Part shown: positions 6,910 to 35,057 of the stretch, in pieces | How the letters are laid out: each line of letters begins with the position of its first letter | How positions within the stretch are numbered: the first letter of the stretch is position 1 | Origin: a bacterium | GTDB taxonomy: Bacteria; Electryoneota; JAOADG01 | NCBI GenBank assembly: GCA_963681965.1 | Contig: OY820579.1 | Span: forward strand, 2,560,001 to 2,624,000 | Reading direction: 5' to 3' | Length of the DNA: 64,000 bases | Position numbers and translations under genes: made by a program | Notes under the pieces: generated by a model | What the model was told of the DNA's origin: nothing | What the model saw: the letters and a program-made list of their open reading frames with translations, nothing else | The model's database searches: none

Positions 6910-6915
6910 ACCACG

Positions 6916-16007: not shown

Positions 16008-16112
16008 TATTTATCACTATGTTTCACCTGATTTTGTATGATGTCTGATATTGCTTTGACAGTCAGGGATTTGTTAGTGATTCCGAATGATCAGATAGTT
16101 CGGCAGATGGTC

Positions 16113-16266
16113 AGCCTGTCAGTTCCACCCATAAGCGAACAGTAAATCTTCTCAGCTATCGTAACTGTAGCCGAATCGCTTCGCGCAAAGCAACGAAGTC
16201 CGAACAGGAACTCGAAAACCATTTTTATAGAGCCTTCTGCAGAAGGCGTTTCAGGGGGAGTTGTGA
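16113..16266 (+). pseudogene. hsdS C-terminal remnant (repeat A copy 1 at 16199-16266)
   Basis: Reads SLSVPPISEQ*IFSAIVTVAESLRAKQ then, across frameshifts, SEQELEN and SLLQKAFQGEL*, paralleling the end of hsdS (31800-31865). Confidence 0.8.
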
Positions 16267-17000
16267 AACGGCTGATCGAGGATAATACTTATTTGACGAT
16301 CTCCGTACTTGAGAATGCTATCGATTCATTGGAAACTGCTGCAGCACAATTAGTGCGTTTGGATAATCTTAAATGGAAGTGGGTTGCCATTACATTACAT
16401 CACGCTTTGTACACTTTCTGCGTCGCTGCATTAACCGGAAGTAATTACGAAAATGTGTTAGGCGATGACTCAAACTGCAATTGGTGTAAAATTGGAAGTT
16501 CGGAGAAGTGGAATAGACTGTATCAAATGAAACGTCCTAAAAGTAGTGGCTATCTTATCGAATGGAAAGAAACTGACGAAGTACCGCCAGTTTTTAATGA
16601 GAAGTTGGCAGCAAGCGACAATAATAATTCCAAGAGAAGGGCAACAAATCGTAAAAAGCTCATTGGGTTTTGGACTGCCTTTGCACGAATTCAGGACGAT
16701 GTTTTCTGGATGAAGCGGTTTGTTCACTCTCGGGCAGTTGGTATTTCAAATACTGAATGGGACAACATTGAATGGCTGACCAACGAAGTCCGAAATGGTT
16801 GCGTCCACTTTATTCCAAAGTTTTTGATTATCCCGATTGTGGACATTCAGGAGGCTTGTAAAGATGTAGTTCGAATTATTGAATTCTTGGCTTTTGAGTC
16901 GAATACGATACTTTTCAATAACCATGAATCTCAAACAAAGAGAATTGCTAAAGCAATTGAGCAATTCAGTAACTACAGAGATTCCGCAGACAGCGTCTGA
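16263..17000 (+). CDS. Hypothetical protein, putative HEPN-like RNase (cargo 1)
   Basis: R-x4-H motif RNGCVH near C-terminus; GTG start and RBS supplied by repeat A; stop lies inside palindrome P1. Confidence 0.55.
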   Translation: MKRLIEDNTYLTISVLENAIDSLETAAAQLVRLDNLKWKWVAITLHHALYTFCVAALTGSNYENVLGDDSNCNWCKIGSSEKWNRLYQMKRPKSSGYLIEWKETDEVPPVFNEKLAASDNNNSKRRATNRKKLIGFWTAFARIQDDVFWMKRFVHSRAVGISNTEWDNIEWLTNEVRNGCVHFIPKFLIIPIVDIQEACKDVVRIIEFLAFESNTILFNNHESQTKRIAKAIEQFSNYRDSADSV

Positions 17001-17079
17001 GCAATTGAGGATTTGGAGATATCTGAGACAGTATCTCGGAAAATCGACTTTGTAGAAAGCGACGATAATCGATGATTGA
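16981..17079 (+). repeat. Repeat B copy 1: two 26-bp imperfect palindromes plus rhuM start
   Basis: ATTCCGCAGACAGCGTCTGAGCAATT (16981-17006), ATATCTGAGACAGTATCTCGGAAAAT (17019-17044), then GAAAGCGACGATAATCGATGATTGA. Confidence 0.85.
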
Positions 17080-18136
17080 TGAAAGTTCCAGTAGCTCCGC
17101 CCCAAAAGAATCCGAACTACTGTTTTACCAGTTGGAGGATGGTCGCACGCGGGTCGAAGTGCGTCTCGACGGGGAAACCGTCTGGCTGACTCAAGCCGCG
17201 CTTGCTGAACTATATCAAACGACCATCCCCAACATCAACATACATATTCGCAATATCTTGGACGAACGAGAGCTAGATGAATCGGCAACTATTAAGCAAT
17301 ACTTAATAGTTCGAGCAGAAGGTACTCGTCAGGTCGAGCGTCAAGTAAAGTTCTACAATTTAGAGATGATCCTTGCCGTCGGCTACCGGGTTCGATCCCC
17401 CCGTGGCACCCAGTTTCGCCGCTGGGCGACCGAGCGGTTGCGCGAGTACATCGTAAAAGGCTTTACGATGGATGATGAGCGGCTCAAGGAAGGCAAGACG
17501 CTGGGTGTCGATTACTTCGACGAGTTGTTGGAACGCATCCGCGATATCCGCGCCAGCGAGAAACGTTTTTACCAGAAAATCCGCGACCTGTTCACCCTCG
17601 CCATCGATTACGATCCGAAGTCGCTTACCACGCAGGAGTTCTTCCAAATCGTTCAGAACAAGCTACATTGGGCGGTCACCCGAATGACGGCACCGGAATT
17701 GATCGCTAGTCGCTCTGATGCTTCGAAGCCGAATATGGGGTTGACCAGTTGGAAAGGGGTAAAAGTACGCAAGGGAGATGTCACCGTTGCGAAAAATTAT
17801 CTCAATGCCGACGAAATGGGCGAGTTGAACCGCATCGTCTCACTGTACCTCGACTTCGCCGAAGACCAGACCAAACGTCGGCAGCCACTCTACATCAAGG
17901 ATTGGCGAGCAAAGCTCGATGCCTTCCTGAAATTCACCGAGCGAGAGGTTCTCGATAATCCCGGACAAGTTTCGATGGAAGTTGCACAGACGCTGGCACT
18001 GGAGCAGTACGAACAATTCCAGCAACGTCGCCTGACTGAGAAAGCATCGACAGCCTTTGCCGAGGACGCAGAGCTGGAACGCACGCAGAAACTATTGGAA
18101 TCAGGGAAAATCGGTAAAACCCGGAGGGAAAAATAA
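17072..18136 (+). CDS. RhuM/virulence-family DNA-binding protein, copy 1
   Basis: TVWLTQ, YNLEMILAVGYRVRS, FRRWAT, RIRDIRASEKRFYQK, NMGLTSW, AKNYL. Confidence 0.9.
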   Translation: MIDESSSSSAPKESELLFYQLEDGRTRVEVRLDGETVWLTQAALAELYQTTIPNINIHIRNILDERELDESATIKQYLIVRAEGTRQVERQVKFYNLEMILAVGYRVRSPRGTQFRRWATERLREYIVKGFTMDDERLKEGKTLGVDYFDELLERIRDIRASEKRFYQKIRDLFTLAIDYDPKSLTTQEFFQIVQNKLHWAVTRMTAPELIASRSDASKPNMGLTSWKGVKVRKGDVTVAKNYLNADEMGELNRIVSLYLDFAEDQTKRRQPLYIKDWRAKLDAFLKFTEREVLDNPGQVSMEVAQTLALEQYEQFQQRRLTEKASTAFAEDAELERTQKLLESGKIGKTRREK

Positions 18137-18320
18137 GGCCTTCAGTTTGCTTCCAATATTGATCGCGCTAAGTTACTCATACAGTAACCTTGCGCAACCG
18201 ACACCTGCTATAATTGAGAATTTCTCAGACGACATTCCTTCTCGAATCGCTCAACTAACACTTATTTCGCACAGTATCATTTAGTATGTTAGTGTTCAGT
18301 AATAGCGTTAGTAGGATGAC

Positions 18321-19307
18321 ATGAACAAGCTCAAAATTAATCTGGTACAGTACTTACGCGATACAATCGGTGTCGAAGTGGATCTTCGAGACTGGGAGAA
18401 GTGGCGCGGGTTTCCACAGTATCTCCGGGCTCGGTATCACTACTTTATGATGACAATGCTGGGTACGGAATGTGTCCTGGTGGTTGATACTGATGAAAAG
18501 GAACAGACTCCTGCAATCATCAATAAGCAATTCGATCAGATTCGCTCTCTTCAAAATGCCACTCTCATTTATGTACGCGAGGCTGTAAGTTCTTTTAACC
18601 GTAAGCGCTTGATCGAGCATAAAGTCCCTTTTATCATACCGGGAAACCAAATGTACCTACCGATGCTTGGTATCGACTTACGAGAACATATCCGGCAAAT
18701 ACGGGAGTCTAAACCGAAGCTTAGTCCCTCTACTCAAGCGCTCATTCTATCAATACTGTGGAAAATGGAAACTGGTACAATTACTCCGACTGAAGTTGCG
18801 ACTCGACTTGGGTACTCTTTGATGACGATGACACGCGCATTCAACGAGCTGGAGCTTGCGGGTATTGGAAAGCATACGACAATGGGAAAAAGTCGTCAAT
18901 TGAAAATTGTGGAGCAAGGAAACGAGCTGTTGAATTTAGCCATGCCCTTTCTTGGTAGTCCGATTCGGAAGCAGTGTTATGTTGCCAGCAAGGACATGAT
19001 TACTTGTGAAATCTACTTAGCTGGTGAAAGCGCACTTGCTAAATACTCGATGTTGACAGAATCAACCATACCGGTGTATGCTCTTTCGTTGGAAGACTGG
19101 AAGCAGGAAAAAGTACAGAAACAAGTAATGGAGCTTACTTATCCCGAACAGGATTGCTGCGGAATCGAGATCTGGAAGTACGCTCCTGCGTTGTTTGCGC
19201 AAAATGGTGTCGTTGACCGAGTATCACTTTATTTGTCACTCATGGATAACCACGACGCACGGGTTCAAATCGCCCAGGACCAGATGATTGGTGAGATAAC
19301 ATGGTAA
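18321..19307 (+). CDS. Winged-helix protein, type IV antitoxin-like, normally paired with a nucleotidyltransferase
   Basis: VPFIIPGNQMYLP, HTH-like PTEVATRLGYSLMTMTRAFNEL, AGESALAKYSML, IEIWKY; followed by overlapping MVKGLD start. Confidence 0.7.
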   Translation: MNKLKINLVQYLRDTIGVEVDLRDWEKWRGFPQYLRARYHYFMMTMLGTECVLVVDTDEKEQTPAIINKQFDQIRSLQNATLIYVREAVSSFNRKRLIEHKVPFIIPGNQMYLPMLGIDLREHIRQIRESKPKLSPSTQALILSILWKMETGTITPTEVATRLGYSLMTMTRAFNELELAGIGKHTTMGKSRQLKIVEQGNELLNLAMPFLGSPIRKQCYVASKDMITCEIYLAGESALAKYSMLTESTIPVYALSLEDWKQEKVQKQVMELTYPEQDCCGIEIWKYAPALFAQNGVVDRVSLYLSLMDNHDARVQIAQDQMIGEITW

Positions 19308-19464
19308 AAGGATTAGACAGAGGACACGTCAATCTTGGATATGAATTGCTTGTTATGAGTTTACTGAAACCGTGAGTACTCTGCGATGGAAATTTGCAAA
19401 ATTTGACCGAAGGCTAATCATTAATATCTCATTATGATTCATTGTGTTATGAAAAATTGCACTA

Positions 19465-19503
19465 CGATACTCTGCGATGGAAAACTCATGAAAACGGTTG
19501 CAC
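19465..19503 (+). repeat. att-like repeat (matches 22105-22143; partial copy 19377-19392)
   Basis: CGATACTCTGCGATGGAAAACTCATGAAAACGGTTGCAC, 37/39 identical to 22105-22143. Confidence 0.85.
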
Positions 19504-19557
19504 GTGGGGAAATTCTAAGCGAAACTTACCCTCCTCATGAAAAAAAGGCGAACTAAT

Positions 19558-19890
19558 TTAACAGATAGCGCATGAGCTCTTTTTTAGACTTTTCCGAAAA
19601 ACATGTTTAAGTGTTTGTAATGGCAGATGTTCGATTGTTTTGCCAGTTCGTTTTCTCGCTACACTCCTGTTAAATTTGCGAGTCACTGTAATCTTGCAAA
19701 AAAGGGATTTCTTAGCAACCCTATTCTCTTCCAAGCAAAGAGCCGTCTTAGTTAACAGAAAGCGAATGAATCTTTTTTTGACTTAGTAGAGATGTTTATT
19801 TAAGAGTTTATAATTACAGATGTTCATGTTATTTCCCATTTCATTTACTTGCATAATTCCTGTTAAATTAGCGAATTTTCACAATCTTGC
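19558..19890. repeat. Two diverged ~140-bp units (19558-19697, 19752-19890)
   Basis: Both run TTAACAGA.AGCG...GACTT...TTTAAG.GTTT.TAAT..CAGATGTTC...TCCTGTTAAATT.GCGA...AATCTTGC; each contains TTAACAG/CTGTTAA in inverted orientation. Confidence 0.75.
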
Positions 19891-19954
19891 CTTGATCGTG
19901 TAACCACGACGCACGGATTCAAATCGCCCAGGATCAGATGATTGGTGAGATAAC

Positions 19955-20030
19955 ATGGTAAAAGGATTAGACAAGTTCCGTTAGACTTTCGCGGCACACC
20001 AGCAAAACTACCTCGTCATTGGTGTGCGGC
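19955..20030 (+). pseudogene. Nucleotidyltransferase-like N-terminal remnant
   Basis: MVKGLDKFR*TFAAHQQNYLVIG with in-frame TAG at 19982-19984, then loss of similarity. Confidence 0.6.
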
Positions 20031-20303
20031 TTAACGGGAAGCGGATGAGTTCACACAAATCAACAACAAACACGAAGATCCTGCAGAAATCTACGATACC
20101 ACTTACTTGCTTGTTGCAAATGGTCTGACAATATTTCTGTCGTTAGACGATACGCAACACTCTTATGCCATTCAAACTAAAATCGATTTCAAGTGGTTTT
20201 GTGTTTGCTACCCTGTTTCAGGCAATCCAAGACCGTCCTCAGACTCACATGAGCATTGTCGCTTGCACCTAAGCACCATTGATACCTGCTGAACTAAGAA
20301 TAG

Positions 20304-20353
20304 AGTTGACTATCTGTTACCAATTACGTATAATAGGTAACACTTGGTCAACT
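20304..20353 (+). promoter_or_regulatory. Sigma70 promoter inside an 18-bp inverted-repeat operator
   Basis: TTGACT (20306-20311), 17 bp, TATAAT (20329-20334); arms AGTTGACTATCTGTTACC / GGTAACACTTGGTCAACT pair 15/18. Confidence 0.8.
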
Positions 20354-20360
20354 GAATGTC

Positions 20361-20966
20361 ATGAGAATAGCACCCAAATCCAATATTATCATAAGTCGTC
20401 TTCGTCGCTCGGGCATTCTCCGAACAAGCGATCTAATCGCGCTTGGGGTTACTAAAGAGTATCTCAGAAAACTGGCACGCAGTGGAATAATTGAAAATGT
20501 CAGTCGCGGTCTCTACCGACTCCCTAACTCAGATGTATCGATCCACCATTCGATTGCAGTAGCTTGTAAGCAAGTGCCATCTGGAGTCATCTGTCTGCTT
20601 TCAGCCCTTCGGTTCCACAACGTGACAACCCAGAATCCGACTGCCGTCTGGATCGCAATTGGTAGAGAGACTCGTCAACCCACCATTTCTACTGTACCCA
20701 TGCGGTTCGTTAAGTCGTCTAGTAAGTTCATTTCAACCGGTGTTGAGCGTCATCGCACTGCGGATGGACAGGTACGCGTCTACTCCCTTGCCAGAACAAT
20801 TGCGGACTGTTTTAAATTTAGGAACAAGATTGGAATTGATGTAGCGGTAGAAGCTCTTCAATCCGCTCTGAAAAACCACAAAGTTGACATTGATGAGCTT
20901 TGGAAGTATGCCAAACTGAATCGGATAACGAAAATCATGACACCCTACCTAACGGTCACTGAATGA
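20361..20966 (+). CDS. Type IV TA antitoxin, AbiEi family
   Basis: wHTH ending SRGLY, GVICLLSAL.FH..TTQ.P, RTIADCFKFRNKIG.DVAVEAL. Confidence 0.85.
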   Translation: MRIAPKSNIIISRLRRSGILRTSDLIALGVTKEYLRKLARSGIIENVSRGLYRLPNSDVSIHHSIAVACKQVPSGVICLLSALRFHNVTTQNPTAVWIAIGRETRQPTISTVPMRFVKSSSKFISTGVERHRTADGQVRVYSLARTIADCFKFRNKIGIDVAVEALQSALKNHKVDIDELWKYAKLNRITKIMTPYLTVTE

Positions 20967-21844
20967 AAAAGCCGATTACAAATATCTCAGCATCGATCCT
21001 GCAGCGGTTGATGAACTACCGGAAAGTACGGAATGAAGAGTTCAGTGTTGTAGTATCTCGGTACATCGTCGAGCGGTTTCTTTATCGTCTTAGCATTTCG
21101 CAATTCTCGGATTCATTTGTTCTCAAGGGAGCACAACTCTTTACACTCTGGTCGGAAATCACTCCGCGTACAACCCGCGATTTGGATTTACTCCACTACG
21201 GTGATTCCAGTATTGATTCGATGGTGTCAACTATCCGACATATTTGTACTATCCCGTGTGAGGAAGATGGGGTAGAATTCCTGCTTGATACGGTCCGGGG
21301 TGAAGCTATCCGAGAGCAGGCAAACTACATCGGCGTTCGGATTCTAATGTCCTACCGAATCGGTACATTGCATGATACTCTTCAAATTGATGTCGGTTTC
21401 GGTGATGCAGTCGTTTCGCAAAAGCCAAAACAAACCGTTACGGCAATCCTAGAAAATCTTCCAGCACCAGTTCTTCTAGCATATTCGAGGGAAACTGTTA
21501 TTGCTGAAAAGTATGAAGCAATGGTCATATTGGGAATTAGGAATAGCCGGATGAAAGATTTCTTCGATATTTGGACACTTTTTTCAAAGTTTACGATTGA
21601 CGAGTCACTACTTGAGGAATCGATTCTGGCTACTTTTACCAGGCGTAATACACCTTTCCCTAAAAATACTCCACTAGCATTGGCTGAAGAGTTTGCGACG
21701 AATCCAGACAAAATGAAACAATGGTCGGCATTCCTCAAACGAACCCGTGCGACGGGCATTCCGAGTGAGTTAGAAGTGGTAATTGGGTATCTGCATGAAC
21801 GACTCGAACCTGTTCGATTGAATCTTCTCAAACGAGCCGATTGA
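20963..21844 (+). CDS. Type IV TA toxin, AbiEii nucleotidyltransferase family
   Basis: ERFLYRLS, FVLKGA, RTTRDLD, QIDVGFGD, AEK, NSRMKDFFD; ATGA overlap with antitoxin. Confidence 0.88.
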   Translation: MKKPITNISASILQRLMNYRKVRNEEFSVVVSRYIVERFLYRLSISQFSDSFVLKGAQLFTLWSEITPRTTRDLDLLHYGDSSIDSMVSTIRHICTIPCEEDGVEFLLDTVRGEAIREQANYIGVRILMSYRIGTLHDTLQIDVGFGDAVVSQKPKQTVTAILENLPAPVLLAYSRETVIAEKYEAMVILGIRNSRMKDFFDIWTLFSKFTIDESLLEESILATFTRRNTPFPKNTPLALAEEFATNPDKMKQWSAFLKRTRATGIPSELEVVIGYLHERLEPVRLNLLKRAD

Positions 21845-22073
21845 CTTCATTCGGGTTCACCATTTCGGAAGAAATACTCCAAAAACTTCGCAGATTAATC
21901 CCGACCCTGGCTCTCTACTCAAGACATAAAATGACTGCCAGCGTATTCACTTCGTTAACCATGACAAAGCATGAATTCCAAATTGTACTGGAGTGTTAGT
22001 TAACAGTTTGAGAGTGCTCCCGCTGTTAACCGAGAATAAATTTTTGGAAAGCGTAGATTGTTTATTTCTCGTT

Positions 22074-23819: not shown

Positions 23820-23945
23820 TTTATCCTCCTTGCTATCCCAGTAGTAATGGCAATCACTATGCCACGATTCCAGGTGCGATTTAGTGGTTCGAAGTTACAC
23901 GAACGTTCCGCAGAATCAAGTCCAGTCTGCATGCCCCCCGAATCG

Positions 23946-24258
23946 AGTTAGTAACCCTGCAAAGCGAAAAGTGCTTAATATGATCACTTATAGGGTTACT
24001 AACTACCAAAATGGTGATCAAAATGATCACTCAGGGTAACTAACGGTGACCATAATGCTCATTTTGCTGTAAAACTGGGTTACTAACTACTTCCGGAGGA
24101 TTTCTTGAAGAGAATTTGAAGTAACCTTGCATCTCAAAACGATACTCATATTGCTCACCCTGTATAGGTTTGGATGAGCAGAATGATCATTTCTAGGGTT
24201 ACTAACTGGCTAGCTGCTATTCAATTTGCTCACCCTGCTCGAAATTAGGGTTACTATC
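23946..24258. repeat. Interleaved array of 13-bp AGGGTTACTAACT boxes and 17-bp palindromes
   Basis: 13-mers at 23946 (rev), 23992, 24033, 24076, 24120 (rev, partial), 24195, 24247; 17-mers at 23971, 24014, 24046, 24142, 24174, 24217. Confidence 0.85.
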
Positions 24259-24475
24259 GTTTCTCACTGCTTTCTATCTACTGAATAATCCATTAGTTAC
24301 ATCATTCATCAGACTTCGGCATACCTATTGCGTTAACCGGTATCGTCGTGATTCCGCACGATGAATCCAGTTGAAAATGGAGAACAATGAACCAGCCACA
24401 TAATCTTCGTTTTGAAGTCGTGCAGTCACCGAATGCGAGTGTTGCCGAAGAACATGCAGCAATAAATGTGCTGGC

Positions 24476-25849
24476 AAACAGGAGAGTTTCCCCCGGATCG
24501 CGATCTCAGTCGATATGCTGGACACCGGTGTTGACATCCCCGAAGTTGTAAACCTCGCATTTATGAAACCGGTCAGTTCGTATGTGAAATTCTGGCAAAT
24601 GATCGGTCGCGGTTCCCGGAACAACGAAACCTGCAAGCAGCACTCTTGGCTCCCCAACGGGAAAAAAGAACGCTACCTGATCATCGACTACTGGGAGAAT
24701 TGGGGAGATACACTGCGGAAGAACCGCCGCAAGGAACCAACTCAAATCCCAGTATTGGTAACAATCCTCACCACTCGAATCAAAAAACTCGAGTTGTTGC
24801 TTGCCGACCAGACCGACTCGGCTTTTGTGCGGATCGTAGCAGATTTGCGGCGGGAGCTTGAGCATATTCCGCAGACATCCTTCTCGGTTCAGAAAGCATG
24901 GAGCGAAGTCAAGGATGCCTGGGAGGATGATTTCTGGCGATACTTGACTGCAGACAAACTAGACTTCCTGCAGATGAAGGTTGCACCGTTGCTACGCTTC
25001 GCTGTCGACGTGAACCCTGACGAGGCGTTTTTCATCAGCAAGATGGAGCGTCTCGGTTTATTGCTGCTGCAGCGCAAGGATATGGCGAAACAGATCGAAT
25101 CGATACGCGAGGATGTAGCGCGGCTTCCCACCAACCTATCGCAAGTCGATGAACAAAGACAGCAGGTCGATTTCGTACTTTCCAATGCGTTTGGACAACC
25201 CCAGTCGCTTGCAGCGATTGACGAGACCAAAGCGGCTCTCGCCCCGTTGATGAAGTACCGGAAAGATCGCCCTTCAAACGTCATCGAGCTGGGACTTGAC
25301 GATGTAATTCAATCTCGACACTGGTGTATCGTCCAGAATGGCGACCAGCGCATTTACGTCGAGGAATACAAGCGACTGGTCGAGGAACGGGTACTCGCGC
25401 TTGCAGAAAACCACCCGACGATTAAGAAACTGAAAGCCGGTGGCGACATCACAACCGACGATCTAGTGAGCTTGGAACAGACACTCACCACGGAATTACA
25501 ATCCGATGAAGTATCGTTGTTCGACGATAACATGGAGAAGGCGTTCGGTGTTCGCGTCGGTAGTCTGGTCGATTTCATTCGACACGTTTTGAATCTAGAG
25601 AAACTTCCGACTCGAGAGAGTATCATCGGGGCGGCGTTCGATGCATTTGTGCTGGAGCATAACTTCAATGCCGACCAGAGCCGCTTTCTGCGGGCGGTAC
25701 GGGTTGTGTTCAAGGAACGGAAGAAGATCACGCTCGAAGACTTGTACGACGAACCGTTCACCAACTTCGGAGCGAATGCTGTCGAGAAACTCTTTAGCCA
25801 GCAGGAAATTGACGAGTTGCTGCAGTTGACAGGCGGGTTGGCGGCGTAG
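24476..25849 (+). pseudogene. hsdR: Type I restriction subunit R (EcoEI-like), 5'-truncated
   Basis: Begins at KQESFPRIAISVDMLDTGVD...QMIGRGSR (late helicase motifs); nuclease, Walker A and DEAH motifs absent. Confidence 0.85.
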
Positions 25850-25861
25850 TAAAAGGAGATT

Positions 25862-28800
25862 ATGGTGGCAGATCTAAAGATGATTACCGATAGACCTAGC
25901 TTTAAAGGTGTTGGTCACTCCGATGCAGACGCATTCAATCATAGGGTGATTGCTGATTCTATCCTAGAAATCCTCGAAAAAAATGACCCTCCAATGACCA
26001 TCGGTTTGTTTGGTGGGTGGGGGGTTGGAAAATCATCAATCATGAATCTCATCGAATCGCTCCTTGATCGGGACAAGTATGCCTATGTCTATTTCAATGC
26101 TTGGAAATACTCAGGTGATTCGTTTAGACGAGAGTTCCTATTGACTGTTGCAAGATCGGAAGAGATAATCAAGAGCAAATCGGAACGTGAATCCAAAGTC
26201 AACGAGCTGAGTACACTTAGTCACACTTCGATTCTTAAAAAACCAAAAGAGACAATTTCGATATCGAAGTCGGGTGTAATTCAATCCTCAGCTTTCATCG
26301 TTCTAGCAACAATTGCCACCTACCTTCTTATTAGTGGTGGTGAAGTAAAAAGTTTACCAACGATGGGTAGCGGAATATTTGCGTTGGTAGTCAGCCTTGT
26401 TGTTTTATTTCTAAATCAAGTTAAACAGATAATCAAAGTCGATGTAGACAACTCACAAGATCCGAAACTTATCTTCCCTGAGCAATTTGTAGAAAAGTTT
26501 AAAGAATTAGTCAACATAGCAAGCAAAAATAAACCTTCACGCAAATTGGTGTTCGTTATCGATGATTTAGATCGTTGTGAAATCGATATGATCAATTCAG
26601 TTCTCGTTTCATTGAAAAACTTTTTTGAAGTTGATCGTTGCTGTTTTATTGTGCCAATGGACGATTCCTCAGTTGTTCAAATGTTTTCAGCCAAAAATAC
26701 GAACATTGGTTACGAGCAGTTAAGAAAATATTTCTCTGTATCAATACGAATCCCAGTTTTTCACAATGAAGATATTGTTCTCTTCGCAAAGGAAACAGCA
26801 AAAAAATACAATATCTCTCAAAATGTTGCGTATTTAGCGGCAAAAGGGTACTGCAAAGATGCCCGGAAGATGAAACACTTCCTAAACTTATTTATGATCA
26901 AAAGAGCTATTGCCGTTGCACGACACACCCAAGGATATTTGGGTGAGTTAGATGTTAGCAAACTTGAACCCCAGATTGCCAAACTTACAGTTTTAGAGTA
27001 CCAGTATCCAGAGTTTTACAGAGTTATAACCGAGAACCCGGAGTACTTGAACCGATTCACAAATGCTGCGCGCGGACATGAAGAAAATCTTAGCGAAAGC
27101 GAGATACTGTGCGAGTTCTCAGAATCCAAAGACGGGAAGATTTCGATCAATGATGTTTGGAAAAAATACCGTGGGTTGAGAAAGTTCTTGGCTGAAACTT
27201 ACCAAATCGAGATTATAGATTTAGACACACTTGCGAAGCTAAAAACAACGGAACAAGTCACTAGACTCGGTTCAATTGGTTCAAAACTTAGTCGAGCAGT
27301 TACCGAGAATGAGTTTCACTTCGAAGAATTTCTGACTGCAGATTCTGTTCAAGGAAAGGATGAAGCAATTGTTGATACGCTTCAAGCTTCAATAGATGAT
27401 GATCTAGAGCTAGTTACAAGGCGCGTTATTGAAATAGCGCACTACTTATTGATAAATAAAATGTTAATTGCTGAGGAACATAAGAGATTATTTATTGATG
27501 TCACTAGAGTCATCACTTCGAAAACGTTGGATTTTAAACTTCAAATCGAGGATTTGAGTTTTTACCTTAACGAGTCGCCACAGTTGAGCGAATCATTACA
27601 TGACGACATTCTCAGTAAAGTGCAGAGTACTCTCCTTTCACAAGATTCATACACTGACGCTGTTTGGGAAGTCATCAACCATCCCGAATTTTTTAGTCGC
27701 GCTCGGAATGACTCAAATCAATTCAATACTTCCCTTGAACGGTGGCTACAAGAAGTTTTTGATAACCCAGTACGACTGCTCAGTTTCCTTAAAGGTCTGA
27801 ACTCACTTCGATTGACGAAGGGTGAGCGTAAGAACGCAGGATTGGTTGTTCCTTCTGCTGTGCTTGAACACCAACTTGTGTCTCGGATATCGGGTGACGA
27901 CACCGAAATGTTAAACCAAATCAATGACGAACTATATAAGTTATTCCTTAATCCCAACAACGCGGGTGAGTTTACTTCTGACGATACGCTTGATTCGACT
28001 TTAGTGCGAATTCTCAAAGACCTGCTATCTAGGAATGCGGAAACCGAAGGATTCACTCGTTGTGCTGATTTCGTTCTTCGGTTGCCCCGCGAATTGCATT
28101 CAGATCAAGCTTTAAAGTTGTCAAGGTTCTTAACAAATCAACCAATTGAAGAAGAGGAGGAAGTGAGTTCTGAACCAGTTATTGTGGAAAACACACCATT
28201 GGTATTATGTCTCCTTCTTCGGTGTTTACCAAGACTATCTGAAACCCAATCTAAATCAGAAATAGAATTCGTCGAGGGCGTTTACAGTTGCTCTTCGACA
28301 GAACTTCAAGCAGTAATCGATCTGATAAATTCATACTCTTATTTACAAAACGAGTATACATGCAAGCTTCTGAACCAAGGAGTCACTAAAAAGTGGCAGT
28401 GGGTAAAAGACAACTTCCAGACTCTGCACAAAGAAACGGATCTCTTACCCTTTGCAAGAATTTGCCAGTCCTACTTGGGAAATATAGACATAGAGGTTAA
28501 ATCTTTCGTTCAGCAGCTTTTGTCTCTATCGGAGGTGGAACAACTCCAACATGCAACTAATTACATCGTCGAAAAAGCACGAGAATTTGGCGAACCATTT
28601 ATTATCGAATGCATTACGGCAGTAACGAGCAATATTTCGAATCAAGAGCTACCTATTGATTGCCGAACCATCTACATCGACCTCTACAACGCTCTCTTGA
28701 ACCTGATTCCGAGTGAAAGAAGAGGTAATACCTTTGACGAGTTGGTTGCCACTATCCAAATCGATGATTTTGATCTATTGCCAATTTTCACCGAGAAGTT

Positions 28801-29242
28801 CGAACCTTTACGGAGCACAGTAGGTCGTGGGTTGCTTCAACCCCAGCAACGTATTTTCCTCGAAGCAATTGTAAACGATGAGACGAACGACCTTTCGCAG
28901 TATTCTACCTTTTTTAACACTTGTCTACTAAATGGAAAACTATCCCCTGAAAGTTCAACTACACTCGCACGTAGAATTATGAATGAACTACCCCTGTCTG
29001 AAAAAAGTGAGGGGCATCGGATGTTGTTACTCGAACTCACGAATGAAATTACCGCAATGAGTGATGACAAAAAAGATGATTTGTCACAGACGCTATACTA
29101 TTATAAAGATACCGGAGATAATCCCCAATTAAGGGGGAAGGCACATGAGATCAATGAGATGTTGATTTCGAACGGCACAATACGCCGGTATTCACCTCCA
29201 CCACCACCTCCGCCATCTGAAGCAACAACTGAGGAAGCTTAA
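25862..29242 (+). CDS. KAP-family P-loop NTPase with long helical C-terminus
   Basis: GLFGGWGVGKSS, FNAWKY, two TM helices, VIDDLDRC, LRKYF; AAGGAG RBS. Confidence 0.88.
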   Translation: MVADLKMITDRPSFKGVGHSDADAFNHRVIADSILEILEKNDPPMTIGLFGGWGVGKSSIMNLIESLLDRDKYAYVYFNAWKYSGDSFRREFLLTVARSEEIIKSKSERESKVNELSTLSHTSILKKPKETISISKSGVIQSSAFIVLATIATYLLISGGEVKSLPTMGSGIFALVVSLVVLFLNQVKQIIKVDVDNSQDPKLIFPEQFVEKFKELVNIASKNKPSRKLVFVIDDLDRCEIDMINSVLVSLKNFFEVDRCCFIVPMDDSSVVQMFSAKNTNIGYEQLRKYFSVSIRIPVFHNEDIVLFAKETAKKYNISQNVAYLAAKGYCKDARKMKHFLNLFMIKRAIAVARHTQGYLGELDVSKLEPQIAKLTVLEYQYPEFYRVITENPEYLNRFTNAARGHEENLSESEILCEFSESKDGKISINDVWKKYRGLRKFLAETYQIEIIDLDTLAKLKTTEQVTRLGSIGSKLSRAVTENEFHFEEFLTADSVQGKDEAIVDTLQASIDDDLELVTRRVIEIAHYLLINKMLIAEEHKRLFIDVTRVITSKTLDFKLQIEDLSFYLNESPQLSESLHDDILSKVQSTLLSQDSYTDAVWEVINHPEFFSRARNDSNQFNTSLERWLQEVFDNPVRLLSFLKGLNSLRLTKGERKNAGLVVPSAVLEHQLVSRISGDDTEMLNQINDELYKLFLNPNNAGEFTSDDTLDSTLVRILKDLLSRNAETEGFTRCADFVLRLPRELHSDQALKLSRFLTNQPIEEEEEVSSEPVIVENTPLVLCLLLRCLPRLSETQSKSEIEFVEGVYSCSSTELQAVIDLINSYSYLQNEYTCKLLNQGVTKKWQWVKDNFQTLHKETDLLPFARICQSYLGNIDIEVKSFVQQLLSLSEVEQLQHATNYIVEKAREFGEPFIIECITAVTSNISNQELPIDCRTIYIDLYNALLNLIPSERRGNTFDELVATIQIDDFDLLPIFTEKFEPLRSTVGRGLLQPQQRIFLEAIVNDETNDLSQYSTFFNTCLLNGKLSPESSTTLARRIMNELPLSEKSEGHRMLLLELTNEITAMSDDKKDDLSQTLYYYKDTGDNPQLRGKAHEINEMLISNGTIRRYSPPPPPPPSEATTEEA

Positions 29243-30774
29243 TGCTAACAGACCCTATTCTCCGTTCGAAAGTCGATGCCCTCTGGGACAAGTTCTGGTC
29301 AGGTGGAATCTCGAATCCGCTGTCTGCGATTGAGCAGATGTCGTACCTCATTTTCCTGAAGCGGATCGAGGATATGGACGATACACGAGCGGCATCGGCA
29401 CGCCGCCGGTCAACACCGTTCACTTCGTTGTTTGACAATCCCATCGGTTGGAAAACCGGTGACATCGACCGTACCCAGTGTCGCTGGTCGTATTGGAGTC
29501 AGCTCCCCGGCGAACGGATGTTGAAGCACGTCCGGGACAATGTGTTTGAATTCCTGCGGACGCTCGGCGGCGAAACCAGCACCTTCACACAGCACATGCA
29601 GGACGCGGTGTTCATTATCCCCAAAGCGTCGCTGCTGCAGGAAGCGGTCAAGATCATCGAGGAGATGCACATCTCCGAGCAGAACATCGACGTGCAAGGC
29701 GACTTGTACGAGTACCTGCTTCGCCAGTTGACGATGGCGGGGAAAAACGGTCAATTCCGCACCCCTCGTCACATAATTCGGATGATCACGAAACTGGTGA
29801 ATCCACAGATCGGTCAAAAAGTGTGTGACCCGGCGGGCGGCACCGGTGGTTTTCTCGTCGCGGCTTACGAGCACATTCTCGAGGCGAACACCAGTCCCGA
29901 CATTCTCGAATACGACGAGGACGGCAAACCGCACCACCTCATCGGCGATAAAATTGCCGACAAGCGACTCCAGACATTCCTGAAAAGCCACGCGCTGACT
30001 GGGTACGATTTCGATCCTACAATGGTTCGCATCGGCGCGATGAATTTGATGCTCCACGGTATCGACAACCCGAATTTCATCTGGACGGATACGTTGAGCA
30101 AGACCTTCACCGAAAAAGGGTTGTACGACGTCATTATCGCGAACCCGCCGTTCAAAGGGTCGATTGACAAGAACGATATTAACCCCCGGTTCAAGGTCAA
30201 AACCACCAAGACGGAACTGTTGTTTCTCGAGCTGATGATCGACCTGCTGGTGATGGGTGGTCGCTGTGGGGTCATTGTACCAGACGGGGTGCTGTTCGGT
30301 GGCAGCAACGCCCATGTGGACGTGCGTAAACGGCTGTTAGACGCTTGTAAACTCGAAGGGGTAATATCGATGCCATCGGGAGTTTTCAAGCCGTATGCGG
30401 GCGTGTCGACGGCGGTGCTGATCTTCCAAAAGGGGGGCATCACCGATAACGTCTGGTTCTACGATATGCAGGCGGACGGCTTCTCGCTCGACGACAAGCG
30501 GAATCGCGTCGCTGAGAACGACATTCCCGATCTGGTCGCTCAGTGGCAACAACGGGCAACCGCAGCCGGTGCCGACCGTTCGCAGAAATGCTTCATGGTT
30601 CCGGTCGACGAGATTCGCGCGAACAAGCACGACCTCTCGATTTCGAGATATCGCCAAACAGTTTCCGATTCCGTTTGTTTCGAGAATCCTGTAATTCTGA
30701 TTGATAAGCTCTACGATCTCGAGGGTGAAATTCAATCTGATATCGTTGCAATTAGAAAGCTGATGAGTAGATGA
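29242..30774 (+). CDS. hsdM: Type I R-M methyltransferase subunit
   Basis: GQFRTPRHI, DPAGGTGGFL, ANPPF, VPDGVLFG, FKPYAGV, DGFSLDDKR. Confidence 0.95.
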   Translation: MLTDPILRSKVDALWDKFWSGGISNPLSAIEQMSYLIFLKRIEDMDDTRAASARRRSTPFTSLFDNPIGWKTGDIDRTQCRWSYWSQLPGERMLKHVRDNVFEFLRTLGGETSTFTQHMQDAVFIIPKASLLQEAVKIIEEMHISEQNIDVQGDLYEYLLRQLTMAGKNGQFRTPRHIIRMITKLVNPQIGQKVCDPAGGTGGFLVAAYEHILEANTSPDILEYDEDGKPHHLIGDKIADKRLQTFLKSHALTGYDFDPTMVRIGAMNLMLHGIDNPNFIWTDTLSKTFTEKGLYDVIIANPPFKGSIDKNDINPRFKVKTTKTELLFLELMIDLLVMGGRCGVIVPDGVLFGGSNAHVDVRKRLLDACKLEGVISMPSGVFKPYAGVSTAVLIFQKGGITDNVWFYDMQADGFSLDDKRNRVAENDIPDLVAQWQQRATAAGADRSQKCFMVPVDEIRANKHDLSISRYRQTVSDSVCFENPVILIDKLYDLEGEIQSDIVAIRKLMSR

Positions 30775-31865
30775 AACAAGAATTCATTAAAATCAGCGAT
30801 TTGTGTAAGTTCGAGTATGGCGACAGCCTTCCCGCTCGAACAAGAAACACGGGAAGTGTCCCTGTCTATGGTTCGAACGGTATCGTTGGATTCCACGACA
30901 GTGCTGTGACTTCAGGAGAAACAATAATTGTTGGGAGAAAAGGTTCGGTTGGTGAAGTTCATTACTCGCCAGTTGCCTGTTTTCCTATTGACACGACTTA
31001 CTACATTTCACGAACGCTAAAAAAGTGCTCACTTAAATGGTTGTATTTCATTTTGAAAAGTTCCGGAATGACTGAGATGAATAAAGCGTCAGCAGTACCG
31101 GGTTTGAACAGAAACGATGCATACGATGTCAAAATCCACTATCCCCCACTACCCGAGCAGGAGCGCATCGCGGCGATCTTGGAGAAGGCAGATGCGGCTC
31201 GTGCCAAACGCCGCCAAGCCAATGCCCTGACTGAGGAGTTCCTCCAGTCCGCTTTCATCGACCTCTTCGGCGATCCCGCCACTAATCCGAAAGGATGGAA
31301 GACAAAACCTCTAGGGTCATTGTGTGACATTAGACGCGGCGCATCACCTAGACCAATAAAAGAATTTCTGGGCGGAACCATTCCTTGGATAAAAATTGGT
31401 GATGGTTCGCAAGGTGGTTCTATTTTCCTATCATCGACAGCAGAACACATAATCGAGTCAGGTCAATCCAAAAGTGTGTTCGTACCTGAAGGTTCGTTGA
31501 TTTTTGCTAACTGCGGTGTGAGCTTAGGATTTGCTAGGATTCTCAAAATTTCTGGTTGCATTCACGACGGTTGGTTAGCATTTAGCAATTATTCAAACGA
31601 ACTAAATCCCTTGTTTTTACTCGCGACAATCAATGAGTTGACGGGGTATCTTAGAGGGATTGCCCCTTCAGGAACTCAACCCAATTTGAATACTTCGATC
31701 ATGAAAAATCTGCAGATTCCGCTACCACCCGTCAAAATGCAGTCCAACTACGCTGAAACAATGATTCAAATCGAAAACCTACGAACTAAGCAACTTCAGT
31801 CCGAGCAGGAACTCGAGAACCTGTTCCAAAGCCTTCTGCAGAAGGCGTTTCAGGGGAAGTTGTAA
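30771..31865 (+). CDS. hsdS: Type I R-M specificity subunit
   Basis: Two TRDs separated by PPLPEQERIAAILEKAD...FGDPATNPKGW; ends SLLQKAFQGKL (repeat A copy 2, 31800-31865). Confidence 0.93.
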   Translation: MKQEFIKISDLCKFEYGDSLPARTRNTGSVPVYGSNGIVGFHDSAVTSGETIIVGRKGSVGEVHYSPVACFPIDTTYYISRTLKKCSLKWLYFILKSSGMTEMNKASAVPGLNRNDAYDVKIHYPPLPEQERIAAILEKADAARAKRRQANALTEEFLQSAFIDLFGDPATNPKGWKTKPLGSLCDIRRGASPRPIKEFLGGTIPWIKIGDGSQGGSIFLSSTAEHIIESGQSKSVFVPEGSLIFANCGVSLGFARILKISGCIHDGWLAFSNYSNELNPLFLLATINELTGYLRGIAPSGTQPNLNTSIMKNLQIPLPPVKMQSNYAETMIQIENLRTKQLQSEQELENLFQSLLQKAFQGKL

Positions 31866-31881
31866 TCAATTAGGAGATGTA

Positions 31882-32595
31882 ATGAGTGGAATATTAATTG
31901 ACCGTTTAAGCGGTATTCATGGTATTCTCATGGCGTCATTCGAAGCTAGTGCAAAGATGTCCAGTTCAACTATAGGTTCAGAACGCGAAAACTTCGTCAA
32001 GTATTTTTTAAGTGATATCCTACCTCCACCATTTCGAATCGGATCAGGTGATATCATCGACAGCAAACAACAACGAAGTGGACAAGTAGATATAGTTATT
32101 GAATACCCCTTTCTTCCTAGCTTTCCTTTACCCAATGGTGAGAAAAGATTGTACTTTGCTGAGGGTGTAGCTGCAGTGATTGAAGTAAAATCAGAGATCG
32201 CTCAACAATGGCAAGATGTACTCAGAACAAAATCAAGCGTAAAGGCTCTTGAAAGAAAATACGAACGAGTTGTTACTCGCCATCATGGTGAAGAGTATTC
32301 ACACGGTGTTGAGTTTTACAACAAAATTCCTGTTTATGGCGTTGGCTATAAGGGCTGGGCTAGGATCGAAACACTTCGAGAAAAAACTTCACCTAATAAT
32401 GAAGGTAAAATAGACATTGATGGATTATTGGTATTAGAAAGTAAATTATTTTCATCACAGGAATTTACCTTGCCAAAAGAGTCATTCTCTTGCTTATTGG
32501 CATTTGCGAATTCACTCTTGAAAGACCTGAAAATGTTTCGCGAGATTGATGTAAACTTTGGTAACTATGTAAAAGTGCTTGATGGCATTGCCTAA
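31882..32595 (+). CDS. DUF6602-like PD-(D/E)XK-fold protein (cargo 2)
   Basis: GSERE...SGQVDIVI...EGVAAVIEVKS pattern; own AGGAG RBS. Confidence 0.65.
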   Translation: MSGILIDRLSGIHGILMASFEASAKMSSSTIGSERENFVKYFLSDILPPPFRIGSGDIIDSKQQRSGQVDIVIEYPFLPSFPLPNGEKRLYFAEGVAAVIEVKSEIAQQWQDVLRTKSSVKALERKYERVVTRHHGEEYSHGVEFYNKIPVYGVGYKGWARIETLREKTSPNNEGKIDIDGLLVLESKLFSSQEFTLPKESFSCLLAFANSLLKDLKMFREIDVNFGNYVKVLDGIA

Positions 32596-32613
32596 TGGAG
32601 ATTAACCTCGAAT

Positions 32614-32712
32614 ATTCAGCAGACTGCGTTTGCGAAATTGTGGAGTTAGAGATATCCAAGACTCTGTCTCGGAAATTCGATTTTGATGAAAGTGACAATT
32701 GTCGATGATTGA
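32614..32712 (+). repeat. Repeat B copy 2
   Basis: ATTCAGCAGACTGCGTTTGCGAAATT (32614-32639), ATATCCAAGACTCTGTCTCGGAAATT (32652-32677), GAAAGTGACAATTGTCGATGATTGA. Confidence 0.85.
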
Positions 32713-32797
32713 CTATTGTCCGAGTACCGAAATCCGAACAGAACTCGTAAACCTTTTCCGGAGCCTTCTGTTTAAGGCATTTCAGGGGGAGTTGTGA
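32705..32797 (+). CDS. 30-aa chimeric mini-ORF (rhuM start fused to hsdS end; includes repeat A copy 3, 32733-32797)
   Basis: Open frame MIDYCPSTEIRTELVNLFRSLLFKAFQGEL*; stop overlaps GTG of the next gene. Confidence 0.5.
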   Translation: MIDYCPSTEIRTELVNLFRSLLFKAFQGEL

Positions 32798-33714
32798 ACG
32801 ATAAAGAAATCGAAGAGTTAAAAGATAAGTACAAAGGAACATGGAACAGAGTTGTCGATAATCTTGATAACGAAAAATCAATTTCTAAACGTCAAGCGAG
32901 TCGAATCCTTTTAGCAATCAATTTCTATTTTTGGTTATACCGAATAAAAACAAAAATCAAAATTGAAGATTTGACCTTTGGCTTAGGTAACGTTTCAGAT
33001 TTGAAGAGTGGCGATGGAAAGTTATCACAAACACTTATCGATCACATTTGGAAGCCACTCGATGACACAGAGGTTTTCCATTATACTGAGTTGAGTATAG
33101 CAAATTCTATCAGCTCATCAGGCAAATTGCGGTTTTACTCCCTCAAAAAAAATTATGGTTTTAATGAAGTAGAGACACTCTGCAAGAAACTAGGCTTTAC
33201 AGGGTATCTATCCCCATCTCCAAGTGGGGAACCGAAATGGAAGGAAATGCATGAAAGAACTTTTATATTTTGCTGTTCACCTAATACCAATTCCTTAACT
33301 ATTCACCCATTTGTCAAATATGGGAAAGATGCTCGGTTAAGATTAAAGATTTCGCGACATTCCACATTTAAGCGAATGATTTACAAAAAGTTTTTCTTCG
33401 ATAGAACATCGATTATTAAACGACTGGATTTGTTACTGCACTTATTTTTTCAACGAAGATTGACATTAAAGGGGTATTCCACAATTATTGCATTCTATTT
33501 GCCAAGCAAGTTTAAAACTGAAGATGAATTTCGAATTGCACTCAGATTCTTCGATACTCACCCGAATTATCCTGAAACAGAAGAATTCAATGTTACCCTT
33601 AATGATAAAATTAAGTACATCGAAATCCCACTTTATAGTTCATCAGCGAGTAGTTGCCCAGTGCGCATAGAACTTCTAGGTGTAGAGAAGTGGAACGGAT
33701 CAGCTTGGGTGTAA
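32794..33714 (+). CDS. Hypothetical protein, weakly DUF2971-like (cargo 3)
   Basis: FHYT...LRFYSL and KFKTEDEFR patterns; AT-rich; RBS and GTG from repeat A. Confidence 0.55.
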   Translation: MNDKEIEELKDKYKGTWNRVVDNLDNEKSISKRQASRILLAINFYFWLYRIKTKIKIEDLTFGLGNVSDLKSGDGKLSQTLIDHIWKPLDDTEVFHYTELSIANSISSSGKLRFYSLKKNYGFNEVETLCKKLGFTGYLSPSPSGEPKWKEMHERTFIFCCSPNTNSLTIHPFVKYGKDARLRLKISRHSTFKRMIYKKFFFDRTSIIKRLDLLLHLFFQRRLTLKGYSTIIAFYLPSKFKTEDEFRIALRFFDTHPNYPETEEFNVTLNDKIKYIEIPLYSSSASSCPVRIELLGVEKWNGSAWV

Positions 33715-33734
33715 TTTTGATGAGTTACTTCTGA

Positions 33735-33830
33735 AATCGCCAGATATTGTCTGGCAATTTTTTGTGTGAATATCCGAGACTCTATCTCGGAAATTCGGTT
33801 TTACAGAAAGCGACGATAATCGATGATTGA
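33735..33830 (+). repeat. Repeat B copy 3
   Basis: AATCGCCAGATATTGTCTGGCAATTT (33735-33760), ATATCCGAGACTCTATCTCGGAAATT (33770-33795), GAAAGCGACGATAATCGATGATTGA. Confidence 0.85.
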
Positions 33831-34878
33831 CGAAGGTTTCAGTAGCTTTGCTCCCAAAGAATCCGAACTGCTGTTCTACCAGTTGGAAGATGGTCGCTCG
33901 CGCATTGAGGTGCGTTTAGAAGGCAACACGGTCTGGTTGACGCAGGCGTTGCTAGCCCAGTTGTTCCAGACGACTAAGCAGAACATTAGCCTGCATTTAC
34001 AGTCGATCTTCACTGAGGGGGAACTGGAACCCGATTCAGTTGTAAAGGAATACTTGACAACTGCCGTTGATGGAAAGAACTATAAAACAAAGTATTATAA
34101 TTTAGATGCGATCATTGCTATTGGCTACCGGGTACGTTCTCCCCGTGGCACCCAGTTCCGCCGTTGGGCAACCGAGCGGCTACGCGAGTACATCGTCAAA
34201 GGGTTCACGATGGACGACGAGCGGCTCAAGGAAGGCAAGACGCTCGGTGTCGATTACTTCGACGAGCTGCTGGAACGCATTCGCGACATTCGCGCCAGTG
34301 AAAAGCGATTCTACCAGAAAATCCGCGAGCTGTTCACCCTTGCCATCGATTACGATCCGAAGTCGCTTTCCACACAGGAGTTCTTCCAAATCGTCCAGAA
34401 CAAGCTGCATTGGGCGGTCACTCGGATGACGGCACCTGAATTGATCGCCAGTCGCTCCGATGCTTCCAAGCCGAACATGGGGCTTACCAGTTGGAAGGGG
34501 GCGAAAGTCCGCAAGGGAGATGTCACCGTTGCGAAAAATTACCTCAATGCTGACGAAATCACCGAGTTAAATCGCATCGTTGTAATGTACCTCGATTACG
34601 CGGAAGACCAGACCAAGCGTCGACAACCGCTTTACATCAAGGATTGGCGAGCAAAGCTCGATGCCTTCCTAAAGTTCAACGAGCGGGAGGTTCTCGACGA
34701 CCCCGGGCACGTTTCAATGGAAGTAGCACACGCGCTGGCATTCGAGCGGTATGAGCAATTCCAGCAGCGTCGCCTGACCGAGGAAGCATCGACAGCCTTT
34801 GCCGATGACAACGAACTTGAGCGAACACAGAAATTGCTGGAATCCGGTAGGGCAAGCAAGCCACGAAGGAAGAAGTAA
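33823..34878 (+). CDS. RhuM/virulence-family DNA-binding protein, copy 2
   Basis: Same motifs as 17072-18136; nearly identical after GYRVRS, divergent between WLTQ and GYRV. Confidence 0.9.
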   Translation: MIDEGFSSFAPKESELLFYQLEDGRSRIEVRLEGNTVWLTQALLAQLFQTTKQNISLHLQSIFTEGELEPDSVVKEYLTTAVDGKNYKTKYYNLDAIIAIGYRVRSPRGTQFRRWATERLREYIVKGFTMDDERLKEGKTLGVDYFDELLERIRDIRASEKRFYQKIRELFTLAIDYDPKSLSTQEFFQIVQNKLHWAVTRMTAPELIASRSDASKPNMGLTSWKGAKVRKGDVTVAKNYLNADEITELNRIVVMYLDYAEDQTKRRQPLYIKDWRAKLDAFLKFNEREVLDDPGHVSMEVAHALAFERYEQFQQRRLTEEASTAFADDNELERTQKLLESGRASKPRRKK

Positions 34879-35030: not shown

Positions 35031-35057
35031 ATATTGTACGTATTGGAGGATAATGGT

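Follow-up and report, generated by a model that had tools for sequence, protein, structure and literature searches.

Repeats framing three hsdS-X-rhuM modules in a bacterial defense island are probably recombination scars

The 64,000-nucleotide (nt) stretch of DNA analyzed here, referred to as the window, covers positions 2,560,001 to 2,624,000 of the forward strand of contig OY820579.1 (GenBank assembly GCA_963681965.1), from a bacterium of the phylum Electryoneota (lineage JAOADG01); coordinates below count from its first letter. Within a large defense island in this window, two short repeats, A and B, frame three unrelated genes (cargo 1 to 3) between hsdS, the specificity gene of a type I restriction-modification (R-M) system, and the defense gene rhuM. 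Our reading, to which we assign a probability of about 0.7, is that hsdS-X-rhuM modules were stacked by one homologous crossover and one illegitimate join, and that the repeats are scars of this recombination rather than integron-like sites. On this view, a single module occurs in the window in three diverged versions that differ in their X.

An initial annotation of this sequence had described A and B as the borders of an exchangeable, expandable slot that works like an integron array. Repeat search, alignment, profiles and genome BLAST agree that both repeats are real, lie near where that annotation placed them and frame three unrelated genes, and its gene order holds: A-cargo 1-B-rhuM, and hsdS(A)-cargo 2-B-A-cargo 3-B-rhuM. 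The slot survives insofar as one position contains three unrelated genes and was expanded once, at the B2-A3 seam. Its supposed integron-like working finds no support: A and B are pieces of genes, have diverged as the rhuM paralogs have, vary in their boundaries and have no further copies in the genomes and loci searched.

Results

Repeats A and B are the ends of neighboring genes

Module 1 consists of an hsdS relic (A1), cargo 1, B1 and rhuM1; modules 2 and 3 consist of hsdS ending in A2, cargo 2, B2, A3, cargo 3, B3 and rhuM2. Repeat A corresponds to the last ~22 codons of hsdS and is found as one intact gene end (A2) and two relics (A1 and A3). A repeat search of the window placed this family at 16223-16267, 31822-31866 and 32754-32798 (84% identity). 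The full extents of A and B come from alignment and from profile matches; because these three copies also served to build the profiles, the E-values of the profile matches are circular. A2 is the last 66 nt of the intact hsdS (31800-31865, plus strand). A1 is a decayed hsdS 3' relic (16099..16266, plus strand), found by tblastn of the window's HsdS against 15500-16300 and by the repeat family; it spans ~55 codons interrupted by an internal stop and a frameshift, and its last 66 nt are repeat A, with 11 open codons before TGA and no start. A3 is a ~22-codon relic (~32733-32797, plus strand) that tblastn aligns to HsdS residues 347-364 with 78% identity. In both A1 and A3, the hsdS-frame TGA overlaps a GTG start (GTGA) preceded by GGGGGAG, and repeat A indeed supplies these signals to cargo 1 and cargo 3, as had been proposed. 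In A2 the stop codon is TAA, and cargo 2 is equipped with an AGGAG of its own and an ATG 17 nt later.

Repeat B comprises ~90 nt before rhuM plus the first ~10 rhuM codons, and it precedes two intact genes (B1 and B3) and one relic from which the rest of the gene is absent (B2). The core family lies at 17019-17093, 32652-32726 and 33770-33844; repeat search and alignment show the copies to be 75-84% identical, and the core 75-79%. B1 (16981..17110, plus strand; repeat family, alignment and profile) and B3 (33731..33861, plus strand), the regions before rhuM1 and rhuM2 with the starts of these genes, run unbroken into the rhuM1/rhuM2 paralogy detected as repeat families. B2 (32609..32735, plus strand; repeat family, BLAST, alignment and profile) ends after ~10 rhuM codons. 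The earlier observation that cargo 1 ends inside B is accurate, its stop (16998-17000) lying 18 nt into B1. In the frame that places a TGA over the rhuM ATG (32583-32708, 16959-17075 and 33713-33826), the three B copies translate into similar peptides with a faint likeness to Cas4 C-termini. The idea that B is a decayed cas4 tail, prompted by cas4 preceding rhuM in six closer loci (see below) and by a tblastn E-value of 0.68, was dropped: nhmmer gave no match for B, and hmmsearch an E-value of 1.8 for B2.

Across the whole 4.24-Mb genome, BLAST with the B3 region returned only the three window copies (E 1e-60, 2e-21 and 2e-12; next best 0.07), and BLAST with the A2 tail returned only itself and A1 (2e-16); A3 went unreported there and was seen by repeat search and profile. 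Overall, the A and B copies are 75-87% alike, i.e., 13-25% diverged. They appear to be old, judging from the share of identical positions in A (84%) and B (75-84%) and of identical residues in rhuM (81.5%). Their outer boundaries differ as well: the A1 relic extends over ~55 codons and A3 over ~22, and B2 breaks off after ~10 rhuM codons.

A1 and A2 contain a perfect 16-nt palindrome that is degenerate in A3. Two hairpins in B3 resemble terminators (33739-33755, with a T run after it, and 33773-33791); the RNA fold z-score is -3.56, and not one of 200 shuffled sequences folded as well. The corresponding hairpins of B1 and B2 are degenerate, with z-scores near 0 (-0.06 for B1). Rfam had no match at E<=1 over 15000-36000. 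These structures, together with three unrelated genes in one slot and a serine recombinase in the island, are what could be expected of a dedicated site-specific cassette system in which A and B, or a fused B-A, are the sites and a trans-acting recombinase, such as the serine recombinase at 22074-23819, excises and inserts single-gene cassettes. We consider such a system very unlikely. The relic boundaries of A differ, the palindrome decays in A3 and the hairpins in B1 and B2, and copies 13-25% diverged are unlike actively used sites in one array. Moreover, the A palindrome lies within conserved C-terminal codons of HsdS, and coding constraint may therefore explain it. Searches of the genome, of 78 other genomes from the phylum and of the at least 160 rhuM loci listed returned no additional A or B copy. 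Among 29 open reading frames (ORFs) scanned with Pfam between 483 and 43422 (those below 150 aa only within 12000-38000), there was no tyrosine integrase or Phage_integrase match, and the serine recombinase was the only recombinase.

The seam between modules 2 and 3 fuses a rhuM head to an hsdS tail

At the junction of modules 2 and 3, the rhuM head of B2 is fused to the hsdS tail of A3. Two small ORFs predicted from the sequence span this seam. The first (32595..32708, plus strand, 37 codons) falls within B2, starting at an ATG that shares bases with the cargo 2 stop (TAATG) and ending at a TGA that shares bases with the relic rhuM ATG (ATGA). The second (32705..32797, plus strand, 30 codons) begins with the rhuM start and continues in frame into the last ~22 hsdS codons (A3), and its TGA overlaps the cargo 3 GTG. 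The predicted chain of overlapping ORFs from cargo 2 to cargo 3 is unbroken (TAATG, ATGA, GTGA), and we suggest that it may keep the displaced cargo 3 translated. Such an ORF relay over a recombination seam would be the most original feature of the locus. Small ORFs overlapping the rhuM start were also counted at 61 of 139 loci elsewhere (22 with the exact 4-nt overlap); that count had no control and allowed permissive start choices, and we do not use it. TCCGAAC was considered as a microhomology at the seam and then discarded, as closer alignment places the crossover no more finely than ~32714-32735.

The assembly is correct at the seam. De novo contigs match 19944-34539 (14,596 nt; runs X1 and X3) and 22332-34539 (12,208 nt; run X2) without any difference, and a 769-nt contig from run X4 (32171-32939) bridges the B2-A3 junction. 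These four public runs belong to two studies, and one of the two may have sequenced the source sample itself. An artefact of collapsed or chimeric repeats could be imagined, as the repeats are short and the genome may derive from a metagenome or enrichment culture. Its probability is practically negligible: the contigs of 12-15 kb from three runs and the 769-nt contig from the fourth show 0 differences, and collapse is improbable because copies 75-87% alike are too diverged for it. The misassembly that the initial annotation had allowed for is contradicted by all four runs, whose contigs reproduce the arrangement with 0 differences. In none of them does a joint skip a cargo, and none has a B-to-A circle junction; contigs drop rare forms, so this is silent on excision. 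Separately, a 1,087-nt contig from X4 (depth 6.5) joins rhuM2 at position 34444 to position 27610 inside the gene for a KAP-family NTPase, going back 6835 positions. Its first 569 nt lie off the window, and it could be chimeric, stem from a rearranged variant or mark a duplication or circle junction.

The two rhuM genes are diverged paralogs

The window encodes two full-length RhuM proteins, rhuM1 (17072..18136, plus strand; Pfam PF13310 E 1e-115, PADLOC PDC-S05 E 6e-149) and rhuM2 (33823..34878, plus strand; PF13310 E 2e-113, PDC-S05 E 2e-147). Their Pfam scores, 385 and 378 bits, lie far above the cut-off of 33.7 and identify both as RhuM, the PADLOC candidate PDC-S05; the genome has no further copies beyond these two. 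The proteins are identical at 286 of 351 residues (81.5%). At the nucleotide level, identity is a mosaic, ranging from 49 to 91% per 30 codons, which fits recombination between alleles.

Gene fragments flank rhuM in other genomes

We surveyed relatives of rhuM among the matches listed, with RhuM proteins 50-75% identical to that of the window. Of the 104 loci whose flanks were long enough, 13 have direct repeats shared between the 500 nt before rhuM and the 500 nt after it; the same test gave 2 of 182 for control window pairs placed one gene length further out. Those repeats that we inspected are duplicated ends of neighboring genes. In locus L058, a stub of 199 nt in front of rhuM matches the start of the large ORF directly behind it with 80% identity, and L129 has a 198-nt stub at 92% identity; from their sequence, we read these two stubs as 5' ends of hsdR. 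L128 has an hsdS tail after rhuM, and L079 has an hsdR tail placed behind rhuM and a second gene. In each inspected case, a short fragment of a neighboring gene accompanies a full-length copy of the same gene. A fragment on one side and the whole gene on the other would be expected if incoming DNA pairs with a conserved gene at one end and joins illegitimately inside or near that gene at the other. Tandem rhuM genes, or a rhuM fragment with a full gene, were also seen (L129, 5583-8005; L135, 3535-5575), and the tandem copies in L129 are separated by a stub that we read as an hsdR 5' end.

Directly upstream of rhuM in the 129 loci listed are 22 hsdM, 9 N6_N4 methylase, 7 hsdS and 6 cas4 genes. 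Only one locus (L167), among 85 second-upstream genes scanned, has hsdS two genes before rhuM, so hsdS-X-rhuM is not a general layout. The six loci with cas4 directly before rhuM (L009, L011, L013, L016, L032 and L105) all belong to closer RhuM relatives (61-65% identity), and in other loci rhuM follows cas7, cas2 or a cas3-like gene. These placements show that rhuM is also embedded in CRISPR-Cas loci.

The initial annotation had suggested looking for A and B in relatives, and none of the genomes and loci searched convincingly carried them. With the B2-A3 junction as query, BLAST gave no match in 3 further genomes from the order or 78 further genomes from the phylum. Across the at least 160 rhuM loci listed, the A profile had no match at E<=1, and the B profile had one at E 0.16, in L145, away from rhuM.

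The cargo genes plausibly encode defense effectors

Cargo 1 (16263..17000, plus strand), whose GTG start overlaps the TGA of the hsdS relic, encodes a 245-aa HEPN-like protein with an Rx4-6H motif on a four-helix HEPN fold. Cargo 2 (31882..32595, plus strand) encodes a DUF6602 or NucC-like PD-(D/E)xK nuclease (Pfam PF20247 E 1.5e-19; PADLOC PD_DExK and NucC models). Cargo 3 (32794..33714, plus strand; guanine-plus-cytosine [GC] content 0.36) encodes a 306-aa protein possibly with an ADP-ribosyltransferase (ART) fold. Foldseek searches against the PDB returned nothing at E<=1e-3 for either cargo model. All three genes have a GC content of 0.36-0.40, against 0.52-0.54 for the frame genes (hsdM 0.54, rhuM 0.52), and all three plausibly encode defense effectors.

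Homologs of the cargo genes bear on another explanation of the locus, namely that RhuM and an exchangeable upstream partner form a functional unit, with the repeats being conserved regulatory or translational signals. Such a unit would account for an adjacency that recurs three times in the window and for the overlapping stop/start chain through the seam. A cargo 2 homolog (42% identity over 213 aa) also adjoins rhuM in L101. The wider record argues the other way. No constant partner stands upstream of rhuM in the 129 loci listed. The only cargo 1 homolog found among 401 genomes of another phylum (L181; G452:C4:247000-264000) lies among genes of unknown kind beside a tyrosine integrase, ~7 kb from hsdM, with no rhuM among the 18 ORFs scanned in that 17-kb region. 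Finally, according to the available part of a preprint (10.1101/2024.09.26.614923), a lone PDC-S05 gene protected Escherichia coli from T7, T5 and T4. We give a functional unit of this kind very little chance. In L101, rhuM and the cargo 2 homolog are each preceded by the same promoter-like element (64 nt, 81% identical; 1549-1612 and 2757-2820).

A proposed route by one homologous crossover and one illegitimate join

We infer the following order and mechanism of events. Module 1 would be a further copy of the module that lost its hsd genes and kept a decayed hsdS tail. Incoming DNA with a differently loaded module would cross over homologously in the conserved frame, either in hsdM or hsdS on the left or in rhuM on the right. 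Its other end would be joined illegitimately, as in homology-facilitated illegitimate recombination, linking the rhuM head to the hsdS tail within 32714-32735. In the event at the seam, a resident hsdS-cargo 3-rhuM would have met an hsdS-cargo 2-rhuM, or the reverse. The outcome would be an added gene, with the old tail and its cargo pushed downstream. No dedicated recombinase or site would be needed, as the frame genes would serve as homology arms that also allow a swap of X. Consistent with displacement of this kind, hsdS tails stand before cargo 1 and cargo 3, the relics vary in length, and a rhuM head relic marks the seam; the displacement itself would be a past event read from these remains.

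A history of loss alone is the alternative that comes closest, and we consider it unlikely. It would start from two or three full type I R-M/rhuM operons in tandem, followed by deletions from a rhuM head to the next hsdS tail and upstream of A1. Module 1 is clearly without its hsd genes, and the resident hsdR is truncated too, so deletions do occur in this island. Loss would leave an identical seam, and on the data in hand the two histories are indistinguishable. It requires, however, three tandem operons at the start. Moreover, the stubs inspected among the 104 loci are short fragments beside a full-length copy, for which insertion with restoration is simpler than repeated deletion.

Several observations weigh against stacking by crossover and illegitimate join. 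The surveyed loci, at 50-75% RhuM identity, show a general habit of rhuM loci rather than the history of this one. Because no near relative with A or B was found, there is no "before" or "after" allele, and the event is not reconstructed. The perfect 16-nt palindrome of A and the two hairpins of B are what a hairpin-recognizing recombinase would need, and a large serine recombinase gene (22074-23819) lies 8-10 kb away. An in-frame seam with an unbroken ORF chain is tidier than a random scar need be, although an in-frame join alone has a 1 in 3 chance. Finally, the crossover point is ambiguous within ~32714-32735, and no microhomology can be named with confidence.

The modules lie in a large defense island

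Pfam and PADLOC scans of ORFs show the window to be a large defense island that begins with an Hma system (483-9780). Between Hma and module 1 (9773-15570) is a trio that looks like a conflict system: a C5 cytosine methylase, a 995-aa GHKL ATPase with an HEF_HK domain and a 590-aa Response_reg_2 receiver protein. After the receiver protein come module 1, a winged-helix protein, AbiE, the large serine recombinase (22074-23819; Pfam), the type I R-M operon, modules 2 and 3, and lexA (35034..35678, plus strand; NCBIfam TIGR00498 E 2e-46, above the cut-off), a core gene with which the island ends on the right. Synteny with three relatives in the family could not define the island borders, as these genomes are too diverged.

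The type I R-M operon carries embedded or appended genes, namely a KAP NTPase, cargo 2, cargo 3 and rhuM, and its hsdM and hsdS are intact. Its hsdR is a C-terminal fragment (24515..25849, plus strand; Pfam EcoEI_R_C) of 444 aa that aligns to positions 668-1089 of the 1107-position PADLOC REase_I profile, with the N-terminal ~660 residues missing. As only this C-terminal part is present, the operon is defective for restriction as it stands. Between hsdR and hsdM is the KAP-family NTPase gene (25862..29242, plus strand; Pfam PF07693, partial QatA-like match, GC 0.40). The hsdM gene (29242..30774, plus strand) matches Pfam N6_Mtase and HsdM_N and PADLOC MTase_I (E 2e-165), and hsdS (30771..31865, plus strand) matches Pfam Methylase_S in two stretches and PADLOC Specificity_I. 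The genome has a second type I R-M locus at ~2876979-2883054, ~250 kb from the window, with hsdS and a 928-aa open frame matching HSDR_N.

Other partial gene copies occur in the island. The 3' end of the winged-helix gene recurs 654 nt further downstream, over 73 nt and with 97% identity (19247-19319 and 19901-19973). A 90-nt copy (79%) of the serine recombinase gene 3' end lies on the far side of the AbiE pair (19421-19510 and 22061-22150), so that AbiE is bracketed by recombinase tails. Between the recombinase gene and the truncated hsdR there is a 51-nt direct repeat (75% identical; 23980-24030 and 24183-24233) that may relate to the recombinase's own sites.

Discussion

Defense genes nested in restriction and other defense operons are known and have been used to find new systems. 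Seams like those of the window offer a concrete and testable route, a homologous crossover in a frame gene plus an illegitimate join. If true, this route would explain how genes are gained without a mobile-element gene, stacked by order of arrival and possibly still expressed. Two candidate effectors also emerge from the locus, one of a HEPN-like and one of a possible ART family, in a setting whose anti-phage role is validated. A wider generalization, which we offer as speculation and regard as doubtful, is that the conserved tails and heads of hsdS, hsdR, hsdM and rhuM act across phyla as portable homology arms that make defense operons integrase-free cassette arrays. Their seams would be selected as relay ORFs that pass ribosomes to the displaced gene (here through cargo 2, the 37-codon ORF and the 30-codon rhuM'::hsdS' ORF to cargo 3).

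Integron arrays and clusters of attC sites lacking integron-integrases (CALINs) hold promoterless single genes in tandem with palindrome-containing repeats between them, and such an array can grow. The window resembles them in having a slot with tandem single genes between palindrome-bearing repeats. It differs in that no IntI was found in the ORFs scanned, and in that its repeats are parts of neighboring genes with varying boundaries.

Type I systems with duplicated hsdS fragments switch specificity by recombination, as summarized in the accessible portion of Atack et al. 2020 (PMC7394358). Those loci share with ours extra partial hsdS copies near a type I operon and recombination at conserved hsdS regions. 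As far as that portion describes them, they shuffle target-recognition domains, whereas the relics in the window are tails of 22-55 codons without a recognition domain, in direct orientation and placed before unrelated genes.

A closer parallel is found in operons with embedded defense genes. The available text of the preprint by Payne et al. (10.1101/2024.01.29.577857) reports such genes in type I R-M, bacteriophage exclusion (BREX), defense island system associated with restriction-modification (DISARM) and Hma operons ("guilt by embedding"). It gives no mechanism of embedding beyond a "genomic sink" idea; the terms "recombination" and "hsdS" are absent from that text, and "repeat" occurs there only in a domain name. 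The type I R-M operon of the window, with its KAP NTPase, DUF6602 nuclease, ART-like gene and rhuM, is of this kind. In contrast to the operons described in the available text, it shows seams, and its hsdR is truncated. We found no description of such seams in R-M operons in a literature search that covered openly accessible journals and preprint main texts.

The mechanism itself has a counterpart in the stacked effector-immunity arrays of type VI secretion systems (T6SS). For these, the part of Kirchberger et al. 2017 (PMC5361080) available to us proposes a route by a homologous anchor and an illegitimate join, likens the arrays to integrons without an integrase and cites Rhs C-terminal displacement. 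T6SS, Rhs and contact-dependent inhibition (CDI) displacement arrays, as portrayed there, resemble the window in having a conserved upstream anchor gene, added modules, older modules shifted downstream with a leftover of the anchor, and no integrase. The window departs from that portrayal in several ways: a restriction operon together with rhuM forms the frame, the slot is bordered by conserved sequence on both sides, the units displaced are entire genes instead of toxin tips plus immunity genes, and the seam keeps its stop/start overlaps. The locus is thus likely a variant of embedded defense genes and of displacement arrays, formed by general recombination rather than by a new site-specific system.

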